From a virus, in the IMG/VR virus record IMGVR_UViG_3300045988_086557: a DNA stretch of 64,000 nt; one strand, written 5' to 3'. How positions within the stretch are numbered: the first letter of the stretch is position 1; the number at the start of each line of letters is the position of its first letter. The position numbers and the translations under genes are program-made. Of this stretch, positions 23,801-44,916 are shown piece by piece. The notes below the pieces were generated by a model. It was given only the letters and a program-made list of their open reading frames with translations, was not told where the DNA came from and made no database searches.

Positions 23801-26800
23801 TCCATTTTCATCAAAAATAAGAGAATTATTAAACAACCCTTGAAGATCTGCCTAGTCTTTTGTAAGATAAGTTTCAGCTTCATTAAGTAGTTTGTTATAA
23901 TTAGCTTGCTATTTCTCCAATTCTTGAAGTTCTCTCTAGTATGCTTGAAGTTTATTGGCTCCATAGGCTCTATCTATATTATTTCCAATATCATCTAATA
24001 AATCGTTCTAATTCTCAATTTCGCGAGTTATTTCATGGTATCTATCTTCAATATCCTTTAGAGTCTTTTCATCTTCTTCGTCATACTTAGTGCCTTCATT
24101 ATCTCCGCCACTTGAACTTCCCTTTACTCCTTCTATAGCTCCATCAATAGAATCTAATAATTTGCTCTAGGCTATTTTTGCTGCTGCTATAGCCTCATTA
24201 TACCCATCAATACTCCCCTAATAAATGGCCCTTAGCGCTTCTCCAACTGCCTAAGATTGCTTAGCTTCAAGTGCCTCACTAGCATCACCATAAATATTTA
24301 AATCGTCTGCGGTTACAGGTTCTACATCTAAATTTGCAGTTAAAGAATTTAAGAAATCATCAGCGTTACTCGTATCTATTGTTGTTGCAGCCGAACTATC
24401 AAAAGAAACAGCAGAAGTATCAAAATCTTGCTTAGTAACATTATCAGTTCCTATTTGAGATACTTGAATTCCAGTAGCATATGCCGCATCTCTAATTTTT
24501 TCAAGATTAGCAAGAACATTTTGAGTATTTAACTATACATTAGTACTCATGTTCTGCGCGCCCTAAGCAGAATACTCACTAACATTAGTCCATAAAGTCT
24601 ACTAATTTGTATCTTGTGCGGTTAAACTATTGACCTAATCATCTAACATTTCTCCATTAGCAAGATTCTAAGCATTTACATATCCCGCTAATAAAGTTCT
24701 CTTCTGCTCATCTGATAATTCGTTTATAGTTAATTCTCCAGAAGCTAGCTGATCAGCGATCTTAAGCGAAGCTTCAGCCTCTCCTCGTTTAGCCTCTAAA
24801 AGAGAAATAAGATTTTGAAGCATATTAGATTTGGTATCAGCATCAACAGCTAATTGCCCCTAAGAACTATTATAAAATGCTTGATACATCTCATCTGTTA
24901 AAGCAAATGTACCATCCCTTAATAATTCCGCGTTAGCTATAAAACCTGGATAGATAGATTCAATAGCCTTAGCTGCTTCTCTACTAAAACTCCAAACTTG
25001 TTCTCCAGCTTCATTGGTAGTCTAGCTTACTCCATCAGAAATAGCATCGAATACACTTACAATTCCATCAACGGAATTTTCAATCTAATCTAATTGATTC
25101 TAAAAATTTAATTCTGCATTTATTTGTAACTAAGCTGTGCTAGAATCTATATCATCCTATAAACTACTAATTAGCTACTCTGCTAAAGTTACAGTATCAA
25201 TTTTATCTTGAGCTTCTTTTGTCCCATACTCAAATGCACTAACTACGTTATCCGCAGTTTCGGTTTTAAAAGATTCCCAATCAAAATTTTCACCTAACAA
25301 ATCCCAATCAATCGTATAATTATCAAGATTAAATTCTTCTCCGCTATTTAAGCTACCTTGATAATCATTATACGCTTCTCGAACTTGTTCCCAAGCATAA
25401 ACAACTTTTTCTGCACGTTCTAATTCAGAATCGCTATATTGATTTAAAATATCCTATTGCTCAGTTATTCTCTTTTTTGCTTCACTAATCTAATCTATTA
25501 ATCCATTATTGACAGCCTAATAGGACTCATTTATAATCCTCTATAAATAACTCTATTGTTCAACCAAAGTCATAGCAAGGAACTAATTAAAATCAATAAT
25601 TCCTTTTTCTTGATTTCCCCAATCAACAGTTTTAGAAAGTGATTCTAATCCTTCTCGATCTAAATCTCCATCTCCAAGAGTTTCTAAGACAGATTGTGCA
25701 GTAGTTAAAGATTCTGTTGCGTTTTCAACTTCGGAAATAGCATCAGTATATTTTTTAGCACTGTCATAGGCATCCTAAAAAGTCTCCTATGTTAAAGCAC
25801 CCCAATTTAATAAATTTAATACAGAAGTATCATAATTTTCATCTGTAAAAATAGATTCAAGATTACTTTTTAATTCTTCATCATTGACTAATTCTTCAAC
25901 CTCTAAAATTGCGTCATAAATATCTTTAAAGCCACTAATATCAGGATTCAGAGAAGTAGATACTAAATCATTGATTATATCGTTTAATTCTTCGCCTTCA
26001 TATCCAGCAGAAGTGAGCGCCTCTGTAACTTCGTTAACCCAAATTTTATACTACGCTAAACTTGATACTTGATCATCGGTAATAGTCTAATTATTAAACT
26101 CTCCAAGCTATACCCGAATAGCATTTATACTCTCTTTAGTTTCTTTATATTGAGTGACAACCTCTTCCATTTTATCTCGCCACTCAACAGCAGCATTGTA
26201 AAGTCCAGATGCTCCTCTTTCCGAAACAGTCATGCTATTATTCATCAAATTAATAGCATTATTTAATTGATCATAAAAATTAATTAATTCTTCTGTATTA
26301 TTTGGGTCTATAGAAAAAGCTAAGTTTCTTCTTCCACCAATTACATTGTCATTCCAACTACTATATAAAGCGTCCACATTATTGAGAAGAATATTAGATG
26401 CAGTATCTTCTTCGGTGCCATTCCAAAAATCATTAAAACCAGTAAAAGACCCCTCATAATTTCCACCAAAATATACGTGGCCCACGCCCTCTCTCGCGGT
26501 TTCAAGAATGAGAGTTTCATTCGCACGTAACGCTTCTTCTTGGGACTACAAAGTTTCCTAAAGTTCTCTTCTTTGAGCTTCTTGAGCAGCTTTTAAAACA
26601 CTATTATAATCTTCATACTATCCACTTAGTCTAGCTAATGCACTGCCTTCTAAATCATACGCTTCAGCCAACTAACGAGTTAAATCATCTAACTCTTCTT
26701 TTCCATCCCCAGTTTCTTGATAAGTAGATAAGGCATTTTGAGTAGATTGAATTAACTCTCTATTCGCTTGTGCTTCTTCTTTTTTTGCATTTGCCGCATC

Positions 26801-29599
26801 AATAGAGGCCTAAGCAGCAGCCAAGGTTGCTTCATGCTATGCTTTTATAGCACTTGTTATTGCAGTAATCGCTATTATTGCTACCATAATTGCAGCAGTT
26901 AAGATGCCGGAAGCCATAACGGCTTTCTGCTTCGCCATAGCAAGCTATTCTGTCGCTAAAGCCTCTACTGATGTTGCCGCGGCGTCCGCTGCTGCTGCAA
27001 CAGCATGAGCAGTAGTTAACATATTTAAAGTTTTATAAACAGAAATAATAGAGGGTAGTAACATACCAAGAGAAGTAAACAAAGCTACAATTCTTTCAGT
27101 TGAAGTCATATCTTCATCAGAAAAAATTCTTCCAATGCTCTAAAAAGCATTCATAATCATAGTTAAACTAGAAAGAGAACTTCCAACCTAAACCAATATT
27201 GTAGCCCAATCTCTCGTTGGTATTAATGCTTTTGTAATTACACTAGGGAACTTCGCTAACAATTCCTAATATCGAGCCTCTTGTTCAGTTGTTCTTGCAG
27301 TAACAGACTCCAATTTTGTTAATTCATTAATATAAGAAGTAACTACTCTTGGATCGGCTCCCATAGTCTATAAAATAGTCCCAAGTTCACGAATTTGCAA
27401 TTTTGCATTTTGAGACTAATTTTTTAACCCCTCTAATTGCTAAGTCAGCCATTCAATCTAAGCATAATTATGTTCTTTTCCCGTAATACTAGATAATAAA
27501 TTACGAAGGCTGTCTCTAGTCGCAGTTCCAGCGCTTTCAAGTTTTTTAAATTCTTGATACACTGTATCAAGTTTTGTAGATTGCTAAATTAAACTAGTTA
27601 ACTAAGTAGTAACATCATTATAAATTTTATCAAGGTTACTATTAGCTCTTATATTTAACTAAATTTGATTACTTTTATTTCTACTATTAAATTTATTTAT
27701 TTCTGCTTTAACTTCTTCTTGCCAGCCATCTTTTATTCCTATATTAAAATAAATAGTATCTCTAAGATTTAATACATTTTCCCTAGACTAAATCTACTAC
27801 TAAGAATATGTCTTTAACTAATCTTGCAAAATACTTAATTTTAACTGTTCTGTCTAAATTAATCTACGACCATTAGCATCCATCGCGTCGTAGTTACTAT
27901 TTATTTGGCCCTATATATTAGCCTAGTCAACCATAATATTAAAAAGATTTTTTTCAGCCTAAGACATAGAGTTTGTTAAGCCTAATTGAGTTGCTATCTC
28001 AGCCGCTGATGCCTACAAATTTCTTGCTCTATTCTACTCTAATCCAGATAGAACTTTTATATTAGCCACCATAGAACGCATTGATTCAGCAATCTTATTT
28101 CCATAAATCCCATTAATCAACAAAGCGGTACTAGCTAAAATACCATTTAACCCTCCCATTGCATCAATGGCGTCTGCAATACCAGATAAAAATGGAGTTA
28201 AGACATTATCTGCATTTATATACAAATCTGGATTTATGACACTATCATAAATATCCTCAGCAGATGCTTTTACTCTATCTCTAGCAGCTTCCCAAGATTC
28301 AGCATAAATATCTGCCTGTTCCTAAAGAGATCCCTCTGCTCCATAAGCACTAGCTAAATTCTCCTAAAAGAAATCCCAATTATCCATAAGTGCAATAAGA
28401 CGAGTATATTGGCGAACTCCGGCTACGGTCTAAGCCAAAGCAATCTACTAGTCATTAGATAAGGTCTCCCATTTTGAACCCATTTCATCAAGTAAGGTAT
28501 CCATAGTTTTAATCTCACCATTAACATCAAAAATATCAATACCCACTTTTTCAAGAGCTTTAGAATATTTATTTAATGTAGTGCCATCATCGAGAGTTTC
28601 TCCAAGATTTAAGCCTTGGATACGAGCAAATAAAGTTCTAAATGCTGTACCTACTGTATTAGCAGACTCACGTGTCGTAGCAGTGACAGTAGCAAGAGCA
28701 GAAGCAGCATATTCGTAACTTAATCCAACTGTATCTGCTACAGAGGCAAATTGTTGGATACCTTCTGAAATTTCATCAGAGCTAGACGCTGTATCGGCGC
28801 CTAAACGCACCATTACATCAGCATAATATTCAAGACTCTTACTTCCATCATAGAAGTTGTTCCAAACTGCGGTCAGCTGATCCGAAGCGGTCTATGCACT
28901 AATTCCTGCGGCATTAGCCATTTTAATAGTAGTTTCAGTTCTATCTAAAACTTCCTATTCAGTAAGACCCTATTGATAATAAATCAAAGCAGCATCACTA
29001 TATTCAACAGTAGTTGTACTTAATGCTTTTGCTGCTTCATTTGCCTATTGAGCAAATTTAGCCATGTCTTCCGCAGAGTTTTCAGTAACTATACGAATAT
29101 TTGTTAATGATTCATTTAGATCTTGTGCATACCCATAAGCTGATTCTATGGTTCCCACAAAACTATTTAACGCGGTGGAGGTAATCTGCCATCTCATAGT
29201 ATTTTTCATAGTAATCCATAACTAATCGAATATTTTGCCAGTGCGCAATGCTGGAAGCTCCGCTTTTTGAATCGCTGTTGCTACATTTAAAAAAGCCTTT
29301 TGCCCCTCGGTACCAATCGAAATTAACGAGTTGGCATAATCTTTAAGAGTTCTTCCGCTAGATTTTAAACTATTTTCAAAAGCTACTAAATCTAACTTTC
29401 CAGTCCCTTGATTAAATGCCTAATGCATATAAGTAGATAACTCTAGCGCAGACTAAGAAGCTTGTCGCAATTCTGCTGTAACTTTAGAACCGGCACTGAT
29501 TTTATTTAAAGATTGAACTGCCTCGTTTACTGCTCTGTAAAGTTCAGCAGTATCAACATCAAACCCAATCTAATAATTTAATCTTCTATTATTAGCCAC
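20873..29599 (-). CDS. tail tape measure protein (about 2900 aa if uninterrupted), TAG-rich
   Basis: TP901-type TMP core 'TAFRTLFARIQGLNLGETLDDGTTLNKYSKALEKVGIDIFD', hydrophobic segment around 26.8-27.2 kb, heptad-rich repeats. Track ORFs 28448..28813, 28034..28225, 26108..26485 and 21293..21634 all lie in one frame and are separated only by TAG. GTG start after AGGAGG. Full continuity not verified codon by codon. Confidence 0.65.
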
Positions 29600-29704
29600 A
29601 ATCCTTTTCCTCCTTTATCACCCATAAAACAAATAAGGCTCTTGAGAATTATATCTCAAGAGCCTTTTAATTCTCTATCTAATTTGTAAATTATATTAGA
29701 TTTA

Positions 29705-30244
29705 TTAATCTTTTCCAACCACATCTTTAATTACTGATAAAGTTTCAAGATTCTCACCATTTTTAATTTTTTCCATTATATCAGTAATATATGTATCTAA
29801 TCCAGAAGCATTTTTATTCATCATTTGGATAATGCCTGCGGCAGAGTTATTATATCTTGCTATATCGCTTAAAGTATCTCTAACTAAGTCTTCAATAAAA
29901 GACAATTCATCTACTGGAATAGCACTTCTAATTGCATCAATAACACCATTAGTCTCTAGTGTATCATAAGTTTTGGCAATATTTTCATGCACATCTTCTT
30001 GCTCAAAAACAATTCCACCATACCATCTGCAAATAGCAATAGCAAAATAAGTTTCTACTCTTACCGGACTAAAACACCCAGTCATCTCATCTATCGCTAA
30101 ATCTGCGACAAAAGTAATAAGATTTGTTTTATCTGCAATCGGAAGATAATTAACCACAGATAAAATCTTATCTTCTCCAATTTTTACTTCTGTATATTTA
30201 ATTTTAGGCTCCAAACCCAAATCTTTAAAAGTAATTTCACTCAT
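29705..30244 (-). CDS. tail assembly chaperone (179 aa, TAG-free)
   Basis: acidic small protein immediately upstream of TMP; position and size typical of gpG-like chaperone. Confidence 0.45.
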   Translation of the reverse strand: MSEITFKDLGLEPKIKYTEVKIGEDKILSVVNYLPIADKTNLITFVADLAIDEMTGCFSPVRVETYFAIAICRWYGGIVFEQEDVHENIAKTYDTLETNGVIDAIRSAIPVDELSFIEDLVRDTLSDIARYNNSAAGIIQMMNKNASGLDTYITDIMEKIKNGENLETLSVIKDVVGKD

Positions 30245-30309
30245 TGTAAAAACTCCTTTATCTCATTTATATTTTTATTATACTAGAAAAATTAACTATT
30301 GTCAAGTTT

Positions 30310-31740
30310 TTAATATGCGTATTTAGACAATATATTATTGTTTAATGTAGCAGAAATTGTTAATTTACTTATGACTTCATTAACTATATTACTACGAGTT
30401 AAAGCGTCTAATACATTTGGACCAGTATTTCCATACCACTTATTACCAGTAGAATTTTCTCCCCCAATAGAAACTATTTCATGACCGCTATTGCGAACTA
30501 TGTCATCACAAATATTATTTATAATACGCTAAATAGAAAAAACTTTACCATTAACAATAAGTAACTGACCAAGATGTCCTTTAGAAGAAGCTAGACCGCC
30601 AGAAGAAACCCATTCATTAAAAAATGAGGCGGCTACCGATGCACGAATATTATTAAAAGATTCTTCAAAATCTGATCCAGTGAATCTATGAGCAATCATA
30701 TTATAAGCAAGATATTTTTCTGGCTAACCAGAAAAATAATCCCCTACATTTATATTTGAAAAAACCTAAATTCTATTTGCAGATTTCTTTTTATTCTACC
30801 ACTTTGCATTAACATTAGCACTAATTTCTATATTAAATACTTGATTACCCTTAGTTACTGACAAATTAAAAACATCATTATTAAAAACTTTAACAGCACC
30901 TCTACTTCCATTGTCAGAAGTAGTATTCTATCCTCTATCAACCCACTTTAATTTTCCACCAGACTACTTAATAGCAGTATCTAATATACTATCCGCAGTA
31001 TTAATTCCAATAGATATACCTTCTGCGACTATAGCTTGACTAATCTAATTTCCAATAACTTTTCTAAAAATATATGATATTGTATTAGCAAAAGATCTAG
31101 AGTTTACACTTCCACCTTCATTTAATCTTGAAACCGCTCTACTCAACGAATCTATTACTTCTTTCGCTACATTGATATCCCCATCTTCAATGGACATAAC
31201 ATAGTGCTGCTAAGAATTATCTATCTAAAAACTAGTACCAACTAGCGATCTTCCTATCTAGGTTAAAGCATCAAGAACACTGACATTTATCATATTGGCT
31301 TTCATAAGAGCCTATATCAATAATCTAAAAAAATCATTAACTCTTTTTATATCAGGTGTCCCATTAGCCAACAAATTATTAAAATTGCCAGCCTATTGTA
31401 ATATAGTATTATAATTTTCAAAATTTACCTATCCACCGGCTAATTCAATTCCTTCATTGATACCTGCCGCGATCTAATCAAGAGTAGAATCCAATAAGGT
31501 ACCAATCTATAAATCACTTAAAACTCTCAATCCGCTCGCGGCAACTGGACCCTTAGATTGCATCTATTCTTGAATTGATGCAATCTAAGTCTCAATTCCC
31601 GCAGTCTTCATTTTACTCATTGCCTCTTGATACTATCCACTAAAGAGAATATTTGCGGACTCTACATCTCCATATTCTCTTAAATGACTACTATGATAAA
31701 CAATATAATTTAAAGACCAACGCTATACATAATCATAAAT
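30310..31740 (-). CDS. hypothetical tail protein (about 470 aa, TAG-rich)
   Basis: continuous translation through about 10 TAG between the major tail protein and the chaperone; C-terminus '...SGHEIVSIGGENSTGNKWYGNTGP...'. Confidence 0.3.
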
Positions 31741-31811
31741 ATTAACATCCATACTCCTATATCTCCTTATAAAAAGAAAAAGGGAGGACTTTATTAAGTC
31801 CTCCCTTAAAA

Positions 31812-33203
31812 TTAAATGGTGTCATCGCTAACAGAGACTAACTTATTGCGCATTTTTGCGCCAGAATAAGTGCTTGTGCTTTCTGCAAAACTGAGCTTGT
31901 TATTAATAGTATAACTCTTCTCAAAGTCTCCGTTAATCTTAGTAATCTTAGCTGTAATAGGAGTTGTATTACTCTCCTTAGTAAGAATTACTAATAGGCC
32001 ATCTGCCAATTCTGCGCCATCTACGGTTTGAGTCTTTGTATTGCCCTCAATACGGTCATCAGTAGAGAAGTATTTCTCATATGCTGGATTAGTTGTTACT
32101 ACAGTATACTTGGTACTATCGCTCTCTACTGGAATTTGGAGGCTAATTTGTGCGGCTTCTGGAATTGTATCTCCATAAGCCTCAGTATCATAAGCCTTTC
32201 CTGTTACAGTACCAGTTACATCAAGTTCCGCCTCTGTGGCACTGTTAGAAACAAAATTTACAGTTACATCAGCAGCTTCACTCTCATAAGTACCAACATT
32301 CTCAGAGCATGGCTCACGAGATCCTTCGGTTTCCCCAGTTTCATCAGTAATTACCTGAATAGCGGCAAGAACTTTATGAGTTTGATCAAACTTAGTGTAG
32401 TCTGGGAAAGCGTCCATTGTGAATGTAAAGGTAGATGGATCACCGTTAGCAGCCATGCTGAATGTGAAGTTACTCTGAACCTTACAGTTAGGAATAATAA
32501 ATTCAGCAGGCATATCTACGCCATCGCTCTCACGGCGGAATAGAGTAGAAGCTTCAAGATAATAGTTTCCACCAAACTTATCAGCGGTAATCTCAATCAT
32601 CTGGGCGCCACCAGTGCGCTTTACATAATAGTCAACTAAAACGATAGTACCAGATGGGAGCACTCCCGCATGAGAATAGCAAGTTAAAGTTGATTTTCCG
32701 TCCTCTGTATAAGAAACAGAAACAGGAATGCATGGTTCAGCATTAACTTGACCATCATCTCCTAATACCATTACAAAAATGTCAGCAGAACGATGATACA
32801 TTTCATTTTCATGATCTGCAAATCCATTCCAGCAAGCTTTATCAGGAATCACGATAGTGTTAGCTGTTTCAACTTCTACCTGAGAAGTTTGATGAACGTA
32901 AATTGGAGCTTCTTTTGTTGCATCAAGCAGACCTGCACCAGAAAGAATAGAGAAGCTCTCTGGAGAAAGTAAAGCATCTTCCATTGTAAATGTTAGAGTA
33001 CGCTCACCTTCCCAAGCAATCAATCTAGTATATCCACGTCCGCCCTGTGCGTATACAGTTGTTGCAGCACCTTCAAGAGTAGAGGTTCTTAAAGTGTCAA
33101 AGTACAAAACTGGTTCATTTTTATAGAACTTACGATTACCTAAAGTCTGATAGCTTTTGGCACGAAGTACTACATCGCAAATCTCACGAATACCAAAACG
33201 CAT
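31812..33203 (-). CDS. major tail protein (tube/sheath-type) with C-terminal Ig-like extension, 463 aa, TAG-free
   Basis: longest uninterrupted ORF of the late region, located after the head-tail joining genes and before the chaperone/TMP. Confidence 0.55.
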   Translation of the reverse strand: MRFGIREICDVVLRAKSYQTLGNRKFYKNEPVLYFDTLRTSTLEGAATTVYAQGGRGYTRLIAWEGERTLTFTMEDALLSPESFSILSGAGLLDATKEAPIYVHQTSQVEVETANTIVIPDKACWNGFADHENEMYHRSADIFVMVLGDDGQVNAEPCIPVSVSYTEDGKSTLTCYSHAGVLPSGTIVLVDYYVKRTGGAQMIEITADKFGGNYYLEASTLFRRESDGVDMPAEFIIPNCKVQSNFTFSMAANGDPSTFTFTMDAFPDYTKFDQTHKVLAAIQVITDETGETEGSREPCSENVGTYESEAADVTVNFVSNSATEAELDVTGTVTGKAYDTEAYGDTIPEAAQISLQIPVESDSTKYTVVTTNPAYEKYFSTDDRIEGNTKTQTVDGAELADGLLVILTKESNTTPITAKITKINGDFEKSYTINNKLSFAESTSTYSGAKMRNKLVSVSDDTI

Positions 33204-33239
33204 GAGCTAATTCCTCCTTAATTTTTAGGATGTATATCT

Positions 33240-36200
33240 CGCATCCATGATTCAACTGGTTTATCTGGTTTGCCGCCCGCAAGACGAACCCGCAAGTCAA
33301 CATCCCATTCAATAAACGCATTATATCTTTCCATCAAATCAAATATCTAAAACATATTTAGATTTAAGCAATCCTCTAAACTCATTGTATTAGATCCGAT
33401 TGTCAAGATAGATATATAGCGTGTTAGAACACTCTCATTATTTCCTTTGCTTTTGATTTCTGCTACTTTTCGTCTACCGCGCATTAACTTTTCAGCAATT
33501 TCTTTAGCTCGGTCATTAGCTGGATTATAGATAACATTATTTCCCTAAAATAGACTGTTTACACACAAAATCTCTTTTAGTACGCTTTGAAAAATATCAA
33601 AGTTATTATCATCTATTAACAAAGGCTAATTTTCTCCTTGCTTAGTTAAAATTATTGAATTTCTAGTTATTACTGGTATATAATCAGGAAATAATAATGT
33701 AAGTAGCATAATAACAGCATTTTTTTTATCTTTATCCTGTGACTATTCTAACACCTTCATCAATACTTGAAAATTAGTTAATGATGATAAAAGAGTTTCG
33801 TCCTATATTAATGATTCTTTATCTAAACATAAATATTGAACTGCCATAAAAAATTTTGTCTCTCCCATAAGAGCTATCTCTTTAATGACGGGAACGTGAA
33901 TAGTAAGTTGTAATTCAGGAATGGGAATATCAATCCCGGCCATTAAAGCTAGTCTATAATCAAGCAAGTGGATTTACCTTATCTTCATTTCCGCGAATAG
34001 CAAGATATGTTAGAGACAAACCAGCAAATTCTTCATCATATATATATGGCGTAGCTGATACAAATTCTAGCTCTCCTATACCCGTTAAATGAGTTCCATC
34101 AAGCATTGAATCTATCTCTCCCGCAATTCGATAAGGTCGTAAATCATAATCTCCCAAATCCCAATTATCATAATGACAAATAATATCAATACCAAATGTA
34201 TTATCTCTATATTCAGGATTTGTAGAATTTCTAACCATAGTGCCATAGATCAATCTTAAATAAGATTTTTCTGGTCTATCAACCTTTATCTTAGGAACAG
34301 CAGAAATCTACTTAGTATCAATCATTTCCTTTATCATATCTCCTGTAACGGTCGGTTTACTTTTCCAATCTCTAGTATTATAAGTTAATAATTTCAAAAC
34401 ATTCTAATTAGAAAGTATTCTTTCCATAATCAGAGAAGCATCTTTCTACATACCTAACAAACTAGATTTAGGATACTCATAAGTATTTTTTTTCATTTCA
34501 ATTCACTCTCCTTAAAATAAAGATTCTACTACAATAACTTTTTCCAGTACAGTATTATCCTTCTTCCATACTAGAGTGAATTGACCATGAGTAGTTTTAT
34601 TCCACACCAACTAAACAGATTTATTTCCATTTGGACATAAAGTTACAGGAACATTCTTTTCTAATATTGACCAAGCTCCATTAGCTTCTTCTACAGAATA
34701 AGATTCTTCTATCATTGGTTTAATAAAAGTCTCTCCCATAATCCCGCTATTTGGAGTAGGATCTTCTGGTTCGAATATTAAACCATCTTTCATACTATTT
34801 TCTATATCATCAGTGTCTCTATTTATATAATCTTCTTCTGCACTAACTTCAATTACATTCTTCATACTTATATCATCTGGAGCCTAAACTTTCCAACATC
34901 TTCCAGCGAACAAAAATTCGCTATATCTATCAAAAGCATGAATAGTTTTCTCATTTCTTGGCATAAGTATGTTTAAGCTAAGATTAGGTTTATCCAATCT
35001 TTCTTGATTCTTCTAAATAGACTCGATTTGGGTTTCAACTGGACCTCGAATCGCAGCCCAAGTCTAACACCAATTCCCTTCCTAATCTTTAAACTTAATT
35101 CTATATCTACAACGTCTTATTTCCCCTCTAAAATAAGCGTCCTCAGTTATTTCTTCAAGATAAATTATCCAGTGAGTGCCAGTTTTTTTCCACTCAAAGA
35201 CATCTCCAGGCCCATATTGATTAATATGATCTATGGAGATTATCTTATCATCATAGTCCTGTTTCACTTTATCTGGATTAATAAGCGCACGACACATAGG
35301 ATAAATATTCATATCTGGATCAACAGCATCTAACGTTGCATCTAAAACCTAGGTTGACTTCTAGACTAATTGAACGGTACAGGCTTGATAAGAATATAAT
35401 AATGCTTTCTAAAGAGTTCTCCATTTATCTTTGATCATTCTATCTTCCTAGTGAATACCACCCTACCATTCAAATCTTTTTCGCATTAATTCAAGATTCA
35501 TCATCTCTAATCACCTACGCCAACAAATCAATACATCTAAAGACTGTTTTTCGATAAATCATAAAATCATTACAGACATTTGAAGATAACCCTTCCAGTT
35601 TAGACAATAAAATAAGTCCCTCAACTCTATCTTTATACATTTTAACTAATCCACTAATTTCTTCTGTTATTACATTCAAATGGTTTACCCAGTCTTCATT
35701 ATTCTCTCTCATTGGAATTAACTTCCATAACTAATTAATCAATCTCTTTAAATCCTACTCTTTTGTTTCTAATGGGAAATTAATATCATATTTATCCATC
35801 AAAAACACTCGTCTCTCTTAATGTTGACCAGTTTGATTTATAAGAGCCTTGATCATCAATTAGTTTTCTTCTTTTATAGAGACGCTGCATATGATGACTT
35901 TGACGTTCTGCTTCCTTTTTCAACTCTATTAATTTGGCTAAATGATTGGCCTAGGAAGTCATTTTAAAATCTGTTCCAGAATATTTCATTCTCGTCTATT
36001 CTATTGAAGCCACCTGGCGTTGTAACCAAGTATTATACATTAGAATAGCAAGAATATTTATTTCTTCTGTCGTTAAATGTGCAGAAAAGGCTGGAATAAT
36101 AGTTGCTATTCCAGTCTCTTCATCATTGTTTTCTATATTGGTAAAACTGTATAATGGAAAACGAGGGAATTCAAAACCAGGAAGAGCATCCATTAAGATA

Positions 36201-36350
36201 TTATATAAATCTTTTTCGGTATCTTCCTATGTCCATTCCATATACATATCATCAGTAATTTTACCAAAAAATCTATCATAAATTTCTTCAAAGGGGGTCG
36301 GATCGCCCTAAATTGGATATTTCTTATTATCCATGGCTATAACCTCCCTT
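33240..36350 (-). other. block of small head-tail joining / head completion / tail completion genes (about 6 ORFs, TAG-containing)
   Basis: track fragments 33960..34253, 34611..34865, 35082..35312, 35515..35712 and 35996..36193 extend through TAG into 100-230-aa proteins; position between capsid and tail genes. Confidence 0.35.
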
Positions 36351-36353
36351 ATG

Positions 36354-36887
36354 TCAATCAGAAATAGCTACTCTGCGTTTTGGAGCATCCTCACTTGTAG
36401 TTGACACTCTTCTTACAGGTTTCTCTTCCTTAGGATTCTTTTTATCATCTGCTGTTAATTCTAATGCTTTAGTAACATTAAATCCTAATTGTTTTTCCAA
36501 AGCGTCTCTTTTAGACATATCATTTAAGGGAAGAGAAATAGCATGGGATTTAATCAGATCTTTAGTGCCTTCTGGAGCAAAATCAAGAGCATCCTTAAAT
36601 TCATCTAAAGAACACGTATTCATCCAAGAATCAATCTCTTCTTCTTTCATCCAATACTCTGGTTCAACCCTACCATTAATAAGATATTCAACAATCTCTC
36701 TATCATCCACAAGCAAGTAATTATAAATTAATTTGCGGCCTCCAGGTGTTTGTACTAGCTTTTCTAGTTCAGATACTTCAAGTTCCTTATGTTCTCCAGG
36801 GTAAAACATACGGCGCACGCCCAATTCAGGCAATCTATATACAACACGACCTGCGCTCTTATTATAAACAGTGCAACTATTTTTCAT
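36354..36887 (-). CDS. hypothetical head-associated protein (177 aa, TAG-free)
   Basis: intact ORF directly downstream of the major capsid gene. Confidence 0.35.
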   Translation of the reverse strand: MKNSCTVYNKSAGRVVYRLPELGVRRMFYPGEHKELEVSELEKLVQTPGGRKLIYNYLLVDDREIVEYLINGRVEPEYWMKEEEIDSWMNTCSLDEFKDALDFAPEGTKDLIKSHAISLPLNDMSKRDALEKQLGFNVTKALELTADDKKNPKEEKPVRRVSTTSEDAPKRRVAISD

Positions 36888-36951
36888 AATTTTTATCTCC
36901 TTTTTCTCAATAAATAAAAGGGGATAGGGATATTTCCCTATCCCCTGTCAA

Positions 36952-38004
36952 TTAACCATTATTTGGATTTGGGTTAGTATTATCAAGCTCGCCTTGAAGT
37001 TCAGTATCAACATAAGAGAAGATGTTATTCGCCATCATTACACCGACACCAACCTTACGGTAAACCTGAATATCACGAGACCAGTCGTCATTATCATTGC
37101 GTTCGCGCACGTGGGTAGTACCTTCAAAAGCAACTTTTACAGGACGGCTCTCAGCTCCACCAGGAATAATCCAAGCATAACCTGGATCGATCATCTTTTT
37201 GGAGTTAGTCTCATCCTCAAGAGTTTGAGGTAGAATTACCACTCTAGTTCCCTTGTAATTTGCAAGATAACCAGTTCCCCAATACTGATCTCTCATGTTG
37301 TCAGAAATCCAAGCATCATTATCTGGAATCATTTTTACTGCAAACTCACGAGTGCAATAAATAGTTGGCTGACCATAAGCAGTAGCAGTATTTACAAGAT
37401 AATCCATAGTTGGTTCGTCAAAACCAGCAACAGCACAACGGTTTGCCGCGGGAAGCTGATTGATAGAACCCATAAGAGCTTGAGCAATCTCTCTATAAAT
37501 AAGCTCTTGCATACCCTCTGTTACAATTTGAGTAAGTTCTGCAAAGTTTACTCTTCCATCAAGGAACTCCTCAAATCCGATACGAGCAGCTCCACCAATG
37601 GCGCTTGTTCCAACTTCGAAGCTCTCAGAACCAAGCTTAAAGGTCTCATACACACCAGCAAGCCCCACACGAGTAATGAATTGCTTAGCGCGAGTAAGTC
37701 CAGTTCTACGAGTAAATACAGGCTTGTCGCCTTGTGCGAAAGTTCTAATCTCAGCAAAATTGCCATAAGAATTGAGTAAACGATTAGGAACAACTTCGTC
37801 CATAGTCTGCTCAATTAAAGAGAATAGAATATTTTTATTTTCTCTATAAAGTTCATCTGTGCCAACAAATTCATTTAGCTCATTACGCAAAGTAGTATTT
37901 AAAGCGTCATAGCTAAAAGACTCTCCTTGATAGCTATAGGTACCAGAAGGATTTGCATTAGCGACAGTTTTCATTAAACTAAGTAAATTAGCTTTATCTA
38001 ACAT
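36952..38004 (-). CDS. major capsid protein (350 aa, TAG-free)
   Basis: size and position after the scaffold/decoration genes; HK97-like capsid features. Strong RBS; no in-frame TAG in 350 codons. Confidence 0.6.
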   Translation of the reverse strand: MLDKANLLSLMKTVANANPSGTYSYQGESFSYDALNTTLRNELNEFVGTDELYRENKNILFSLIEQTMDEVVPNRLLNSYGNFAEIRTFAQGDKPVFTRRTGLTRAKQFITRVGLAGVYETFKLGSESFEVGTSAIGGAARIGFEEFLDGRVNFAELTQIVTEGMQELIYREIAQALMGSINQLPAANRCAVAGFDEPTMDYLVNTATAYGQPTIYCTREFAVKMIPDNDAWISDNMRDQYWGTGYLANYKGTRVVILPQTLEDETNSKKMIDPGYAWIIPGGAESRPVKVAFEGTTHVRERNDNDDWSRDIQVYRKVGVGVMMANNIFSYVDTELQGELDNTNPNPNNG

Positions 38005-38023
38005 TCTTCTTCACTCCTTCCAA

Positions 38024-38713
38024 TTAACCTACACGCTGTACTTTTACACCAGGTTGAAGATCTGGCATAGTATACACTTTTACTACTGCAAAGATAGGAT
38101 CTAAATCTCCACCTTTAGCAGAAGTTTCAGTATCTTTAGTTAAATATCCATCAGTATCAATCTTTAGACGATCGCCTACTGCAAGTTCTCCGGCATTAGC
38201 CTTAATGGTATTAGTAGTCCAAATATCGCCAATACTAATCTTAATTACGCGAGGTACCATTTTAGTTCCTTCTGGCATCAATGCAGGATAAGTAAATGTC
38301 TCCATATTTTTCTTATATGCTACATCACTACCTTCGCGCACAGCTTCTCCGGTATAATCACTTATTGTAGCAAGTGTAGAAACTGTTTGTCCAATTGGAC
38401 TATATACACGAGCATTATAATTATCCTTAATCATAGCAAAATCAGCATCAGTTTCGCGATCTCTATAAATCTTTACTTCATTAAATACCATCATCCAGGC
38501 GCCAGAAATAGCTTCCGTACTAAAATCGCATACGCCTTTTGCATAATCATACTTTACAAATTGACCGTTCTCAAGAATCTCAATAGTGCTAGCTGCGGGA
38601 AGCTGAGCATATACTTGACCATTTCTTGGAGCGGAAAGATGGTTTGGCTCCACTTGACCATATCCATACTGGACAAAAGTGGCATTACCTAATCTTTTAG
38701 AACTCTTAGCCAT
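38024..38713 (-). CDS. capsid decoration-like / second capsid protein (229 aa, TAG-free)
   Basis: between scaffold and MCP as in SPP1-like head modules. Confidence 0.35.
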   Translation of the reverse strand: MAKSSKRLGNATFVQYGYGQVEPNHLSAPRNGQVYAQLPAASTIEILENGQFVKYDYAKGVCDFSTEAISGAWMMVFNEVKIYRDRETDADFAMIKDNYNARVYSPIGQTVSTLATISDYTGEAVREGSDVAYKKNMETFTYPALMPEGTKMVPRVIKISIGDIWTTNTIKANAGELAVGDRLKIDTDGYLTKDTETSAKGGDLDPIFAVVKVYTMPDLQPGVKVQRVG

Positions 38714-38726: not shown

Positions 38727-39965
38727 TTAAATACTGCTTTTAGCAGTTTCACGAATTGCTTTTACCCAATCAGGAACGTTGTCAGTTTCTGGATTATTTA
38801 AATTAAAAAGTCCCTTTGGGGTATTATCTTCTTCTTTATGCTTTTCTTCAAGATTGAAATTTACTTTATTTCTAACACAAAGAATAGATAATTTAGCTTC
38901 AATATCATCTAAAGAATAAGTATCAATATGCTCAGCGACATCTTTCTTATCCTCATCACTTAACATATAGAAACTATCAATCATTTGTTGTTTACTTTGA
39001 CGTTCAGCATTAAGTTTAAATTCTCTTAGTGCTGCAACTTCATTATCTAGATTAGTTTTTTCTTGCTCAAGAGCAGAGTACTTAGTCTCTAGATCGGTAA
39101 ACTTTGTAAGTAACTCTGTATATTCTGTTACTTCTTCAAGATTATACTTCTTATCTTGAGGAGCGTTCTTTTCCTTCTCTTTCTCGGAAGTTGGAGCAGG
39201 ATTTTCAGAAGTCTTCTTATCCTCTTCGGGATTAGGAGTATTTTTCTTGAAATCGGTAGGTGCTTTATTCTCTTTCTCCATAGGTTCTTGAGAGCCTCCT
39301 TTATTTAAAGTTTCTTTTAATTGATCCATCATAGAATACATCATAGTTTTAAGTTTCTAAAACTCTTGATTATTCTCTAAAGAAAATTGAGAACTAAATT
39401 GAGCTCCCTCGAAACAAGGCTCAACATTTTCTCCGAGAACACATAATTTCTCAATCAATGCCTCATTGTAGATAAAGATTCTTTCATTTGTTTTATCATC
39501 TTTTGTCCAAAATCCTGATTGATTTTCTTCATTCAATTCCATAGAATGGTTATTGCCATTCTCCAGGATTCTTTTAGATTCTGGATAAACGCTAGTCCAA
39601 ATGTATACATCTGTCACAAGATATTCTCTTTCTACGCCTTCATCATTGAACTTCTAAAACCATACATTTGCATTTGTAGGAACAAATCCATATGGTCTTG
39701 TGGTATCAACAATAGCAAACTTACCATCTCGAACAATAATTTCTCTATTGTGGCCTTCAAAATCATTTATTTCATGATTAAAATATCCAACAATAGGACT
39801 TCCTGGTAGTTTACGTCCCATTTCCGCGGCCACTTCTTTGGTAATTACAGTATGGTTGCGGTTAGGTTGCTACCCAACGTAGCAAACTTTGCAGACACCT
39901 TTACTAACTAGAGGAGAAATCTAAGTGTTCTAAATATATTCCATCGTATTTAAAATGGGAACACT
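38727..39965 (-). CDS. prohead protease-like domain fused through an in-frame TAG (39345..39347) to a coiled-coil scaffolding domain
   Basis: 'SPIVGYFNHEINDFEGHNREIIVRDGKFA' resembles the N-terminus of HK97-family prohead proteases. Track ORFs 39357..39617 and 38727..39344 are in the same frame, separated only by TAG. C-terminal part is a Glu/Lys-rich coiled coil. Exact start unresolved. Confidence 0.45.
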
Positions 39966-39997
39966 AATATGCAAGTTCAATCCCTCCTTTATGACGA

Positions 39998-41614
39998 ACT
40001 TTCTTGATTAGCTATTGTCTTATCTGACTTTTCGCCATCTTCTTTTTTGGGCCTGCCGGCTCCATTAGTATTAGTTGAACTTGTCTACTTATTCTAAGAA
40101 TTAGTTTTAGATGACTAATTATTATTACCCAAATCTTTTCCGCTTCTGGTATTAGAACTCATAGGTGGAATCATAATTTCTGCCAAATTCAATACTTCGT
40201 TCTCAAATGTTAATGTAGCTAATATACTCGATTGAGAGTGACCTAAAGCAATCTGTGGCAACATCTTAGAATAACCCAGTTGAGCGTGTTCTTTATATAA
40301 TTTAGATAACTCTTTATAATTAAACTAGGTAGTTTCTAACATTTCCGCTCTAAACTCATAATGATTTTTGCGATTAAATTTCTCTACTACTCGATTTAAT
40401 AAATCTGTAAACATGAGAGGAATATCTCTTACGCTAGATTCATCTGTCAAAATAGAATTTGTAACTGCAATATTGCCATCTGCATTAAACAAATTATGAG
40501 TTACACCTGAGTTATTATAAACTGTACGTTCAACTTTTTCCAAATCGTCTGTTGTTGTATTAGAATTATTATCTTTTGTATCAATTTTTTCAATATCTGC
40601 AAAAGTTGTTAATACATCTACACCAATAGCTCGTTTTAACATAGTTACAGCATTATTATGAATATCCCTTGCTTCATCAACATCAAAAATCAAATCTCCA
40701 TTTTTATCAAGAGGCAACTTCTAAATAATAATTTTTAATAATTGTTGCATTGTCTTTTGACGATCTAATTCTTGTGCTTGATCCAAATCAATAATAGAAG
40801 GAATAACCCCAGCTAGAAAAGGAAATTCATTATCATTTAGACTAAACTTTACAGAAATACTAGGATCTAGTGGATACCATACAGTAGTATCACCTGGATA
40901 ATCCCCTTTTAATTTTCCCTGTTTATAAAGAATATATGCCTTTTGAATATCCTGTGGAAAAATCTTTAATATCTAGATTTTATATTGCGGATTGGCAAAA
41001 TAAGTGTCAAAAAACTAAAGATTTAATTCTACTATTGGATTAGGGCCCTAGAAATATCTACTTCTGCAATATGAAGCTGGTAATTTCTAAATTGCAAATC
41101 TATCTCCAAAATCAACAATTACACCATAATAAGCTCCTTCTTTAATAATATCTAATGATATATTTCCAAGCATTCTCTTCACACTAGATTTATCAAGGTA
41201 AAGCAAGACCTTTGAAAAATCTTTCAATAGCTTATCTTTATCTTTCTACGCATCTACTGTGTATGGAGTAATATACCAATCAAATCTATATAAGAAGGCT
41301 AAATATTTACATAATCTATAATAAATACCGCTACTTTCATAAAAGTAATTAGAAATCTCTCTTAAAGTCTTGTAATCATGCTTATAAATAGCATTTAATA
41401 CAAACTTTTTATCTCCATAATTTCTATTTATCTTTTTATATGTGCCTAGATTAATAAGCGCATCATCCACAGACCGTAATCCAACTCGCATTTTTGCATA
41501 ATCAACAGTATCATAGTTCAAAAAATCTTCTTCCTATTGATAACGAGTAATAATACCTCGATCTAGTAGATCAAAACCTTTAGCTCTTATTTCTTCCTAT
41601 CGACGTTTTAACAA
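39998..41614 (-). CDS. portal protein (about 538 aa, about 8 in-frame TAG)
   Basis: follows the terminase; track ORFs 41246..41521 and 40325..40717 in one frame; TTG start after GGAGGTG; low-complexity C-terminal tail. Confidence 0.55.
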
Positions 41615-41632
41615 AATATCACCTCCAGGTGT

Positions 41633-41988
41633 TAATATCCAGCTTTACTCATTAAATAATCATAAGAGATGATATTTTCCTCCGTATAGGGAACTTCAAT
41701 GAGGGTAATACCTTTTAATGCACAAAATCTACGCTTTTGATTATCATTATATTTCTATTGGTATAATCCTCTATTTCCACCAAATTTACTAACAGCCTAA
41801 TAATGCTATTTACCCTGATACTCAATTAAAAAATCAAGATTTCCATCATCATCAAAAACAGCAAAATCAAAACGAAGTGGCCTGCCACTTGGTGCTTTCA
41901 GCCCAGGAAACTCATACTCTTCTTTAAAGTTCATGCCATTTTGCTCTAATATCTCATGAATTTTAATTTCTCCACGACTGGCCTTCAT
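41633..41988 (-). CDS. small PD-(D/E)xK-like nuclease-fold protein (about 118 aa, 2 in-frame TAG)
   Basis: 'RFDFAVFDDDGNLDFLIEYQGK' D...E.K-like signature; ATG 4 nt after the TerL stop. Confidence 0.3.
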
Positions 41989-41991
41989 ATC

Positions 41992-43737
41992 TTACACCTC
42001 ACTCATAAACATAAAATCTGAAAATCTTCTACTTTTACGCTTGCGTTTACTATCTTCTTCCTATTTAATATAATATAATCCATATTCAAGCGCAGAGAAT
42101 TTATCTTTGGGCACAGACTTATTTGCCTGTTTTAAAATAATATTTACACCCTCATTTTCTTCTCGCAAATTTAGCATTTCTTCTCTTAATATAGAAGTTA
42201 AAGTGAATGGTTTTAAATATTCTGCCCGCTCTTCTGGTTTCATGGCTTGACCTTTCTTGGTACCAAGTAATTTATTTCTAGCAACTTTTTCGTCGATTAA
42301 AAATCTTAACTTTCCAGCCCGCAACTATGTCTAAACATTGCTATGGGCTTCGGTATTAATTGGCGCATTTGCCTTAATTTCATAAATAGCATCATATTCT
42401 GTATTATCTGTTCTAAATCGTTTGTATTCTCCATCCTCATCATTAGCTACACCAAAATCAGGAAAAACTTCATTGGTATCTGGCACTATTTGTGGTTTAA
42501 CCATATAATCCATCAATCCAGCACCAAGTCCATTACCGTCAATAACAATAATTTTAGCTTTATAATCATAATATAATCTTTTTAGCTTAATTGCCTAATC
42601 TTCAAAATGTTCATCATCCATAGTATATATATTAACAAGAGACTTAATCGCTGGTCCTTGAGACTGAGGGGTTACTTTAAATACACATACAACAGATTGA
42701 CATTTCTTTCTTCCTACATCAACAGAAAGAACATAATATGCTTGAGCAGAAGAGCGCCCGGAAGATTCATATTCAGGCTAAAGCAATTTTCTACTTCTAT
42801 CAAAAGCATCACCATTAAAGAAGGCATCTTCTACGGTGCCACTCCATTTAGATTCATACTCTCTATCAAATGATGCTTCATTAAATGTACCATCTTGTTT
42901 TAACTCCTATACAAAGTTGCGGGATTGTAATCCCACTAGCACAGGAATTCTCCATGTTCCGCCCATTACAATACTCTTTTCGGGTTCTAGTATCATGCGC
43001 ACTAGCAAAGTAATCAACTTATTATATGGGAATGTGTTTTTCCACCCCGCAGTAGTAACATAAATCTAGGATTTATTGAGTGTTTCTTCTTCATGAACAG
43101 ATCCATCTAAACATCTTCTATCAACGTTCATTAGAGGGATTAAAACTTCATTTAAAATATCTCCATCTACACCAACGCACTCCTCAATTAATCCTCCATG
43201 TCTACGCTTACCACGAGAAGATTCTCTAGCAGCAACGTTGTCAAAATAAGATCCATTTTTGAAGATATACTTACAATAATCTTTTCCTTCCTAAGTCTTA
43301 CCTCTTCGCCAATCAATCTCTCTCTAAAGCGCGGGAATCGCATTACAAATTTCCTAGACTTTTTCTTTTGCTATACCTGCTGCCTGTTCTTTTCCACCAG
43401 AAGTAATGAATAGCTTACATCCAGGATATAATATACATCTACACATAAGCACCATTACTGATAAGAATGACTTAGAATAGGCACGGGGAAATACCATGTA
43501 TACATACTTATATCTCATGGCCGCCCGCAAGAAAACTCTCTAATAAAAATAAAAATTAATTTCTTTTTTTCTTGTCTCGTCTCCTCCGGTCTACAAAAAG
43601 TCAATAAACATATCTGGATATTCTCTCCAAAAAGCTATATACTATCTTGCTGCTGGAATTATCGCACGAACTCTTTCTTCGGAAAGACCAATTTTCTTAT
43701 TATTATTTGAAAGGTTTAATAAATCTTTTAATGCCAT
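41992..43737 (-). CDS. terminase large subunit (581 aa, about 12 in-frame TAG)
   Basis: N-terminal 'PDMFIDFL', Walker-A-like 'VFPRAYSKSF', nuclease domain 'IYVTTAGW', 'KIIVIDGNGLGAGL', 'LRFLIDEK'. Track ORFs 42331..42516 and 42061..42324 share the frame. Confidence 0.8.
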
Positions 43738-43740
43738 ATA

Positions 43741-44910
43741 TTAAACCTCCTTTAATATATTATTTAACATTTCCTCATCTTTGTCTCTTTCCGACTCTTT
43801 CATATCTTCATACTCTTGATAATCTTCTTCTGTTAATTCTGGATGCTCGTAATTAAATAAATCTTCATCCTCATCGCTATCTTCAACATCAATATTTGCC
43901 TCGCGTTCTCTGTCTTTAACTATTTCTCTTAACGAAGCTTCGATCATATTACCAAGATTCATTTCCTCTGTAACTAGAGTATGAGTATATTGCTGTAAAT
44001 CCTAAAGAGTTCTATCTACTTTATCTTGGGGTCCTTCCGTATAATATCTAGGAATAAAACCCTCTCTTTCGCAAAGGGCTACTAATTCACCTATTGAATC
44101 TACAAATTCACCGGATTCGCCTTTGTTCTAAGCAGCCGTAAATTTGCCGCTTTTCATTAAACTATCATAGGCTTTTTGCATCTTCTAAAAGCCATCAATA
44201 TCTCCAGCATCAATTAACTAATTTGCTTTTAAACTAGCTTTACATACCATAATAAGAGTATCTTTATGGCCTGCTCCTTGAATATCATAAGAACTCATCA
44301 TATCATTGTAAAGCTGCTCCATTCTTACTCTTTCTTCCCAAGAATATCCGCGGCCCCATTTAAGACGTAATACTAATTTATCTTCTTCGGTTAGCTAATC
44401 ACCAAAATCATCATCTTCCTCTGGATCTTCATATTCTGGAGTTCCTACAGGGGCCTAAACATCCTCTAATTCTTTTGGTTTTGGAGGAGTTCTATCAATA
44501 GACAACTGCTCTTGGATTTCATCTTCTGTAAATCCTTGAGCTTTCATATTAAGAACTTTTTTATCAATGGAATCTTTCTCTAGCGTTTCTGTATCTGCCC
44601 AAGTGTATTTATTCCATTGCTTTAATTTCATTTTAGATAAATAGCGTCCAATAATAGTTAATCCAGTAACTTTCTTTGGATCTTTTCCATATTTCTCCAA
44701 TAAACCATTCCATTCTTCTTTAATATATGGAACGTCAATCTCCTATAAAATCCATTTATAAGTTTCTGGATTCCAGTTATCTACGTGCATAGTAAGACAC
44801 TTTTTACAAATATCCATCTTTCCATCTGGAGGATACTTCTCTAAATTTTTTGATGTATAAAACTATGTATCATCCATAGTTTTACCACATTTTTTACAAT
44901 AATGGCTCAT
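43741..44910 (-). CDS. Zn-ribbon protein with acidic C-terminus (about 390 aa; 7 TAG); possible small terminase by position
   Basis: 'CKKCGKT...CKKCL' N-terminal ribbon; gene directly upstream of TerL; no strong family match recognised. Confidence 0.3.
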
Positions 44911-44916
44911 TTATAA

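Follow-up and report, generated by a model that had tools for sequence, protein, structure and literature searches.

Capsid and tail-tube genes of a code-15 gut siphophage avoid the reassigned TAG codon, probably through translational selection

The window analysed here is a 64-kb stretch of viral DNA (35% G+C) from the IMG/VR record IMGVR_UViG_3300045988_086557. It belongs to a code-15 gut siphophage of the phAss-1/SPbeta-like group, and the question it raises is how such a phage uses TAG, a stop codon in the standard genetic code, as a codon for glutamine. Most of its late genes are dense with in-frame TAG. Five have none at all: those that encode the major capsid protein (MCP), a decoration-like protein of 229 aa, the major tail or tail-tube protein (MTP), and two proteins of 179 and 177 aa. 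The absence is specific to the reading frame, is kept in distant relatives, goes together with a broad codon bias, belongs to a gradient across genes, and is accompanied by terminator-like hairpins. We consider it probable that TAG is a non-optimal Gln codon in this phage, added by AT-biased mutation and removed by translational selection from the genes of highest output. As an example of codon-usage selection the pattern is clear-cut and not very unusual, except that one of the disfavored synonyms happens to be a reassigned stop.

Results

TAG-free genes in a TAG-rich operon

Codons were counted from start codons supported by a Shine-Dalgarno (SD) sequence, and all of the late genes discussed here lie on the minus strand. 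The MCP gene (36952..38004, 350 aa) has 0 TAG in 13 Gln codons, the gene for the 229-aa protein directly upstream of it (38024..38713, 229 codons) has 0 in 8, and the MTP gene (31812..33203, 463 aa) has 0 in 12. The 179-aa gene (29705..30244, 179 codons), directly upstream of the gene for the tape measure protein (TMP), and the 177-aa gene (36354..36887, 177 codons), just after the predicted terminator of the MCP gene, have 0 in 2 Gln codons each. Together the five genes hold 37 Gln codons, every one of them CAA or CAG (P = 1.4e-12 against the 52% TAG seen elsewhere). That background is set by the other 21 late genes, in which 287 TAG occur in 11,141 codons, or one per 39, and make up 52% of all Gln codons. 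(An initial count with a 120-codon filter took in 19 other late genes with 281 TAG in 10,921 codons; two small genes were added after it.) The 179-aa gene, taken alone with its two Gln codons, is not significant within the window and becomes so only together with its orthologues.

A sequence-only reading of this DNA had named the MCP, decoration-like, MTP and 179-aa genes as free of in-frame TAG. The counts confirm all four, and add the 177-aa gene, which it had missed. Its estimate of one TAG per 30-50 codons for the neighboring genes agrees with the counted one per 39. For single genes its figures were near the mark for TerL (about 12, counted 13) and rightly "far more" for TMP (101), but too low for portal (about 8, counted 12). 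Absence of TAG from its four genes is also as improbable by chance as it had supposed, at 1.5e-14 computed per codon and 6e-12 computed per Gln codon. What does not hold is the picture of a single island spanning 29705-38713. That interval resolves into three TAG-free patches, parted by six TAG-bearing genes. One is a 480-aa gene (30310..31752, 19 TAG) that sits between the 179-aa and MTP genes; the other five are head-tail connector or neck genes filling the space between the MTP and MCP blocks (33218..36334), namely 33218-33943 (5 TAG), 33960-34496 (3), 34512-35504 (10), 35491-35799 (3; a small gene of 102 codons) and 35792-36334 (4). Homologues of these five stand in the same order in Enterococcus phage EF1, a relative that uses the standard code.

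The avoidance is confined to the reading frame. Out-of-frame TAG occurs at 2.28 and 1.78 per 100 codons in the TAG-free genes vs 2.72 and 2.43 in the others, and the motif CTAG is not avoided in the TAG-free genes. Since out-of-frame TAG is at normal levels, the constraint must act on translation and not on the DNA itself. (The stop-to-stop open reading frame (ORF) of MTP does contain a single TAG, but it precedes the ATG, within the SD spacer, and is thus outside the gene.)

That TAG encodes Gln in this phage (code 15) is directly supported by aligned relatives, in which TAG is mixed with CAA and CAG at 10 of 12 conserved Gln columns of TerL and at 9 of 11 in portal. Reading TAG as sense raises the minus-strand coverage of ORFs of at least 100 aa from 16.3 kb under the standard code to 52.3 kb, and by restoring this coverage reveals a long minus-strand late operon (7640-46032). 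Nearly all of its genes start behind strong AAGGAGG-type ribosome-binding sites. Its order, with identities taken from PHROG matches and homology, is TerS-like, TerL, portal, prohead-protease/scaffold-like, 229-aa protein, MCP, connector genes, MTP, and a TMP of 2908 aa (20873..29599, carrying the 101 in-frame TAGs). A tRNA scan found no tRNA gene in the 64-kb window, nor in 14 related loci around the structural module, and scanning the window with Rfam likewise yielded none.

Avoidance maintained across related lineages

A scan of IMG/VR with the MCP yielded 51 related loci, at 55% to 99% MCP identity. For each locus code-15 ORFs were called, orthologues were assigned, and codons were counted inside aligned regions. 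Fourteen representative lineages, among them phAss-1, span 52-99% MCP identity, and the pooled counts that follow refer to these 14. TAG accounts for 1 of 188 Gln codons in MCP orthologues, 1 of 128 in orthologues of the 229-aa protein, 0 of 80 in those of MTP, 0 of 47 in those of the 179-aa gene, and 4 of 65 in those of the 177-aa gene. The protease/scaffold-like gene stands in between, 12.7% of its Gln codons being TAG, and in all other genes the share is 22-53%. For MCP, the decoration-like protein and MTP taken together the contrast is 2/396 vs 602/1997 in the rest (Fisher P = 7e-52). Comparison with other code-15 phages, which the sequence-only reading had proposed, extends its observation to these related lineages, phAss-1 included. 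Single TAGs in the 179-aa gene are seen in loci L019 and L029.

Conserved Gln sites of MCP have been far from static, and all six conserved Gln columns show turnover between CAA and CAG. The few TAGs that do occur in MCP are single-sequence occurrences at the tips of the tree (L004/L005, L052, L018), at sites that are mostly CAG in relatives. It would appear that CAG-to-TAG mutations arise, are carried for a while, and do not persist. For a time at least, MCP can carry one TAG: L004 and L005, assembled genomes of the same species that are 99% identical to the window, carry one TAG at MCP column 319. Given its persistence over the lineages, combined with CAA/CAG turnover, the TAG-free state can be put down neither to chance nor to lack of time, nor to recent import from a phage with the standard code.

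General codon bias and the gradient across genes

TAG is not the only codon that these genes avoid. In the TAG-free genes of the window CGT and CGC make up 61% of Arg codons vs 22% elsewhere, ATA makes up 5% of Ile codons vs 31% elsewhere, and there is more GGT, CTT, TGC, AAG and GAG, with zero CGA or CGG. Chi-square tests made family by family find the bias significant in 15 of 18 amino-acid families. When the MCP, 229-aa and MTP genes are compared with all other genes over the 14 lineages, the most depleted codons (as log2 ratios) are TCG (-5.6), TAG (-5.6), CGA (-5.3) and AGG (-5.3), followed by GGG (-3.6), ATA (-3.5) and TCA (-3.4). The most enriched are CAG, CTG, CGT, TGC, AGC and AAG. 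These three main genes avoid the GC-rich codons GCG, CGG, TCG and GGG as well as the AT-rich ATA, TTA and AGA. Because GC-rich codons are avoided too, the bias points to translational selection and not to a shift in GC content.

A codon-bias score can be used to ask how TAG use varies among genes outside the extremes. The score was built from MCP and MTP vs TMP, TerL, portal and one tail gene, with Gln codons excluded. In 18 held-out genes, rho between this score and the fraction of Gln codons that are TAG is -0.77 (P = 1.7e-4), and among those held-out genes that do contain TAG it is still -0.69. An independent disfavored codon tells the same story: over 15 gene families pooled across lineages, the share of Ile codons that are ATA goes up with the share of Gln codons that are TAG (rho = 0.94, P = 1.3e-7). 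When lineages are compared, ordinary late genes have a smaller TAG share where G+C at third codon positions (GC3) is higher (rho = -0.81, P = 4e-4), which fits a supply of TAG by AT-biased mutation.

Terminator-like hairpins and the 179-aa cassette

Operon-internal terminators are the usual way in which messages for capsid and tail-tube proteins come to exceed those for downstream genes. A hairpin followed by a T-run lies 6 nt past the MCP stop codon (36919..36946, minus strand; 12-pair stem, 7 G-C), and the 60 nt downstream of that stop fold at -23.3 kcal/mol. Eleven of the 14 representative lineages have this hairpin, with differing stem sequences and fold energies of -19.6 to -26.2 kcal/mol, compared with medians of -3 to -12 kcal/mol downstream of most other genes. 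A second one directly follows the MTP stop (31780..31807, minus strand; 12-pair stem, 6 G-C; -23.4 kcal/mol) and is present also in L003, L006, L044 and L046. The third stands between the 179-aa gene and the start of TMP (29635..29666, minus strand; 13-pair stem, 6 G-C), and its 5' arm, AAAGGCTCTTGAG, is conserved in relatives. With their G+C-rich hairpin and U-tract, all three are predicted rho-independent terminators. They are the three strongest terminator-like hairpins on the minus strand in 18 kb, and each falls directly after a TAG-free gene, an arrangement with a chance of about 0.015. Their placement supports the view that the putative terminators mark MCP and MTP as ends of high-output transcripts.

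The 179-aa gene is set apart in other ways. Before it lies a consensus promoter of the sigma-70/sigma-A type, TTGACA-17-TATAAT (30277..30305, minus strand), matching at 12 of 12 consensus positions, and 11-12 of the 12 are kept in 10 lineages (loci L003-L052) although the flanks have diverged. With a promoter and a hairpin of its own, the gene forms a self-contained cassette inside the late operon. It is only weakly codon-optimized (CGT/CGC at 0.38 of Arg codons, GC3 0.26), yet its ATA share of Ile codons is low (0.06). The reason for its being TAG-free may therefore differ from that for MCP and MTP. As a minor variant of the tentative proposition, raised below, that mutation-selection balance sets TAG use, the cassette might be a code-independent gene expressed outside the late program.

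The sequence-only reading had labeled the product a tail chaperone. That label follows from gene position; the protein itself matches just phrog_30570, of unknown function. Searches found no Pfam or NCBIfam match and no homologue in EF1 or Thrax1; a frameshift partner was not looked for. Assignment as a tail assembly chaperone of the gpG/gpGT kind is not supported by these searches.

Identity of the TAG-free proteins

Gene order in this part of the window equals that of Bacillus phage vB_BanS-Thrax1, with its annotated prohead protease, "capsid stabilizing protein" and major capsid protein, and its major tail protein further downstream. Homologues of MCP in the Bacillus phages Thrax1 and Kirov are annotated as major capsid proteins, and MCP is 52% identical to its phAss-1 homologue.

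The 463-aa protein, which carries extra beta-rich domains, shares 29% identity with the "major tail protein" of Thrax1 (BLASTP, E = 4e-23) and matches phrog_2729, "virion structural protein" (E = 1e-55). In a Foldseek search with its predicted structure, the top nine hits are siphophage tail tube proteins (probability 0.98-1.0, E = 7e-7 to 2.5e-4) at low TM-scores; the model is only partly confident, with low confidence in the core domain. Homology to Thrax1 and the Foldseek hits together support identification as a probable siphophage tail tube protein.

The 229-aa protein is homologous to the product of the gene upstream of MCP in EF1 (E = 1.6e-14), and its position equals that of the "capsid stabilizing protein" of Thrax1. 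Its codon bias resembles that of MCP, with CGT/CGC at 0.87 of Arg codons and ATA at 0.02 of Ile codons. By position and codon bias we call it decoration-like or "capsid stabilizing"-like. The 177-aa protein, of unknown function, matches phrog_30998 (E = 3.7e-6) and is homologous to the product of EF1 gene 11222-11896. Pfam, NCBIfam and PADLOC gave no match for the TAG-free proteins, and neither sequence nor profile searches turned up a PDB chain resembling MCP, MTP or the 229-aa protein. The description of the TAG-free set as abundant virion proteins, made in the sequence-only reading, would fit MCP, the decoration-like protein and MTP, and need not extend to the 179-aa protein.

Database proteins matching at E <= 1e-5 number more than 7,000 for MCP and at least 8,000 for MTP, and these thousands of matches indicate that the phage group is very common in metagenomes. 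The matches carry the precomputed families PF27364 and PF27173.

Discussion

How TAG-free genes could arise and persist

The observations can be joined in one account. Acquisition of a suppressor tRNA would have made TAG a usable Gln codon, and AT-biased mutation, mainly CAG to TAG, would keep making it. In genes made in small amounts, TAG would drift to about half of the Gln codons. MCP, its decoration partner and the tail tube protein would account for most late protein synthesis, and in their genes each TAG would cost yield, whether by slower decoding with a limiting suppressor tRNA, by a small chance of termination, or by both. Selection in proportion to output would then clear TAG, together with ATA, CGA, AGG, TCG and GGG, from those genes and leave CAG in place. 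The sequence-only reading had already proposed selection against TAG where output matters most, and the proposal is borne out by frame-specificity, maintenance over 14 lineages, the wider codon bias, the gradient and the terminator-like hairpins. Of the two correlates of expression that it named, codon bias does track the TAG share of Gln, and ribosome-binding-site strength does not tell TAG-free genes from others.

Several points weigh against this account or fit it less well. The highest expression of the TAG-free genes is read from protein identity, codon bias and terminators, and a match of the preferred codons to the tRNA pool of the host is presumed. The identity of MCP itself would follow from distant homology and synteny, the structure model having failed: an AlphaFold2 model from a 28-sequence alignment reached a predicted confidence (pLDDT) of 46, leaving an HK97 fold unconfirmed, and a Foldseek search of this poor model against PDB gave nothing significant. 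SD strength is high for nearly all late genes and so does not discriminate. The base after TAG is the same as the base after all codons (P = 0.48), giving no termination-related signal, and TAG positions along genes are near uniform (Kolmogorov-Smirnov P = 0.07). Finally, the 179-aa gene is TAG-free without strong codon optimization and has its own conserved promoter and terminator-like hairpin.

As to what a TAG costs, slow decoding, competition with release factor 1 (RF1) and harm from truncated subunits would all be compatible with the data. The sequence-only reading had gone further and taken TAG decoding to be slow, leaky, or in competition with RF1. TAG as a poor codon is upheld, but leakiness or RF1 competition specifically is not, since TAG is depleted no more than the sense codons TCG, CGA and AGG and there is no next-base signal. 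The size of the cost can be bounded from TMP. With 101 TAGs, completion of TMP would fall to 0.6% at a loss of 5% per TAG, and would be 36% at 1% and 90% at 0.1%. The loss per TAG is thus likely to be small, roughly 1% or less, and a loss this small implies that TAG decoding is efficient late in infection. At about 1% per TAG, some seven TAGs, the number expected for MCP, would lower its yield by about 7%. The window in this way offers a simple and testable gauge of the cost of TAG decoding, small in view of the 101 TAGs in TMP, and not zero in view of MCP, the decoration-like protein and MTP.

Alternative explanations

Two alternatives would make the pattern an accident of composition or of history. 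An artefact of composition, whether from few glutamines or from DNA-level avoidance of TAG or CTAG, draws on the lower Gln content of the TAG-free genes (2.6% of codons vs 4.9% in the others), but is refuted by their 37 TAG-less Gln codons and by the normal levels of out-of-frame TAG and of CTAG; we regard it as extremely improbable. That the capsid and tail-tube genes came in recently from a phage with the standard code, or have had too little time to gather TAG, is very improbable as well. Standard-code relatives do exist in the same phage group (EF1; PMC10607447), and the TAG-free genes are richer in G+C than their neighbors (0.38-0.40 vs 0.30-0.35). Against this, the TAG-free state is found in every lineage from 52% to 99% MCP identity, the three patches do not adjoin one another, the interchange of CAA and CAG at conserved Gln sites speaks for ample time, and avoidance of GCG, CGG, TCG and GGG is unlike the legacy of a GC-rich donor. 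A recent-transfer origin is effectively refuted by these four points.

The remaining two concern translation itself. If accuracy matters and not speed, truncated subunits from termination at TAG would poison capsid and tail-tube lattices in a dominant-negative manner. The proteins hit hardest are indeed polymerizing subunits, and the 177-aa and 179-aa genes avoid TAG despite modest codon optimization. However, CGA, AGG, TCG and ATA cannot truncate a protein and yet are equally depleted in the same genes, TMP carries 101 TAGs though its truncation should also do harm, and two genomes assembled from the same species (L004, L005) have an MCP variant with one TAG. We judge truncation fairly unlikely to be the main cause. 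Still less do we favor the idea that TAG-free genes are exempt from a code switch, remaining readable in the host code before or without the suppressor tRNA and so open to expression that is early or independent of the late program; as a general explanation this is quite unlikely. Exemption does account for a presumed early block at 47.7-64 kb that is nearly TAG-free (30 of 37 ORFs), so that to be TAG-free is to be readable in the host code, and the 179-aa gene, with its conserved sigma-A promoter, own hairpin and weak codon optimization, is what such an exemption would look like (for this gene the idea does as well as the account preferred here). But an exemption is binary and predicts no gradient between TAG share and codon bias among TAG-containing genes, where we find rho = -0.69 with the bias score and 0.94 with ATA. 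The early TAG-free genes lack the MCP type of bias (ATA at 0.17 of Ile codons, CGT/CGC at 0.30 of Arg codons). The MCP and decoration-like genes have no promoter of their own, and within their operon the TAG-rich genes for TerL, portal and protease stand upstream of them. Without portal and protease, both of which contain TAG, capsid protein also serves little purpose.

Relation to known recoded systems

The closest described relative of the window phage appears to be phAss-1, from the 52% identity of their MCPs. That phage, likewise from the gut and of code 15, is reported to carry three genes for suppressor tRNAs of anticodon CUA (PMC10607447). Like phAss-1 (proposed Phassvirus) and related SPbeta-like gut phages, the window phage has code 15, a genome in the class of about 130 kb or more and a very long TMP, and it shares with phAss-1 the presence of TAG in TerL, portal and TMP. 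The MCP homologue of phAss-1 is annotated as an intact ORF under translation table 11, and so is TAG-free also; the paper on phAss-1 leaves TAG-free genes undiscussed (PMC10607447). A megablast search of the region against a phage collection gave no nucleotide-level match to any deposited phage, from which it follows that the window phage is a genus-level lineage distinct from phAss-1.

EF1 is informative as a standard-code relative because it shares both the codon bias of MCP and MTP and the hairpins. Its ATA share of Ile is 0.00 in MCP and 0.09 in MTP vs 0.26-0.39 in four neighboring connector/neck genes, its CGT/CGC share of Arg is 0.83 in MCP and 0.91 in MTP, and hairpins of -22.5 and -17.3 kcal/mol follow its MCP and its MTP homologue. 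The signature of high output would thus predate the recoding, and avoidance of TAG extends it.

Phage capsid and tail genes are codon-adapted to host preferences, and translational selection acts in highly expressed genes. The pattern in the window resembles such ordinary bias in being concentrated in abundant proteins, spread over many amino-acid families, graded, and present in EF1; it disfavors ATA, CGA, AGG and GGG and favors CGT. It differs in that one disfavored synonym is a reassigned stop, to which 30-52% of the Gln codons belong where selection is weak. Because that codon is so abundant there, its removal leaves islands that are plainly visible as TAG-free.

Similar effects have been reported elsewhere. 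In an amber-reassigned phage of the Crassvirales the MCP has no in-frame TAG, and was given the same reading in terms of translational bias (preprint 10.64898/2026.08.21.746148); Yutin et al. note one crAss-like MCP of the Zeta group without alternative coding (PMC7886860). These code-15 Crassvirales likewise have a capsid gene free of the reassigned codon among late genes that use it, but they are remarks on the MCP of single genomes in podophage-like phages, and the window phage is an unrelated SPbeta-like siphophage. The present analysis goes beyond them in covering decoration and tail-tube genes, 14 lineages and a quantitative tie to codon bias. What is new is therefore the inclusion of tail-tube and decoration genes and the quantitative link, in a different phage lineage; the kind of effect was already known. 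In the protist Blastocrithidia, in-frame reassigned stops are avoided in highly expressed genes (PMC12153298). There too the frequency of the reassigned codons drops as expression or codon adaptation index rises, and the drop is read as a translational burden; the difference is that here it is an infecting phage that imposes the new code, on a host that uses the standard one.

The test made by Borges et al. was for enrichment only, and the gene families in which they looked at an excess of recoded stops were lysis genes and a tail tube family of crAss-like phages (bioRxiv 10.1101/2021.08.26.457843). The window phage is like their system in having early genes compatible with the standard code and late structural genes with recoded stops. 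Here, in contrast, it is the depleted families that are informative, and the TAG share looks like a mutation-selection balance and not a designed gate. We raise only tentatively, and with some doubt, the general proposition that TAG use in code-15 late genes is set mainly by such a balance and not by an evolved timing gate. If it is true, the TAG share of a gene family becomes a quantitative readout of translational demand, and the model in which recoding regulates late or lysis genes would need revision. Even apart from that proposition, a reassigned stop codon in a phage acts here like any poor codon, tolerated at low demand and purged at high, which tempers the view of recoding as mainly a regulatory device for late genes. 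There is also a practical warning for annotation: capsid and tail-tube genes of recoded phages look as if they used the standard code, and alone cannot diagnose the genetic code.

Other features of the window

Upstream of the decoration-like gene, the late operon (38727..46032, minus strand) comprises the protease/scaffold-like gene, portal, a 118-codon gene, TerL, a TerS-like gene and a sigma-factor-like gene, with 5, 12, 3, 13, 8 and 11 TAGs, respectively. The small 118-codon gene lies between TerL and portal (41632-41988, minus strand). The sigma-factor-like gene is the first of the late genes (44917-45963, minus strand), matches phrog_5767 (E = 1.5e-38), and ends in a C-terminal zinc-finger/HNH-like region; a promoter-like site with 11 of 12 matches stands just upstream of it (46016-45988).

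The 480-aa gene between two TAG-free genes is the opposite extreme in TAG use. TAG makes up 70% of its Gln codons, the highest share in the operon, and its GC3 is the lowest. It is also the least conserved family, with 25-33% identity where MCP has 76-80%, and it has no match in PHROGs, Pfam or PADLOC.

The plus-strand region 47700-64000 looks like an early block of small genes, and the 30 ORFs without TAG are counted among 37 that are preceded by an SD sequence. It is compatible with the standard code but lacks codon optimization of the MCP type, and its GC3 of about 0.41 compares with about 0.20 in the late operon.

Near the other end of the window, a complete diversity-generating retroelement occupies 2510-6497 on the plus strand. 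Its target gene (2510-4264) encodes Big_3 and DUF6273 domains, has 8 in-frame TAG, and contains the variable repeat at 4148-4250. An Avd-like ORF (4346-4840, 1 in-frame TAG), the template repeat (4871-4973) and the reverse transcriptase gene (5280-6497; RVT_1, E = 1.3e-16; 3 in-frame TAG) follow in that order, and all 17 of the 17 core mismatches between the repeats sit at template adenines.

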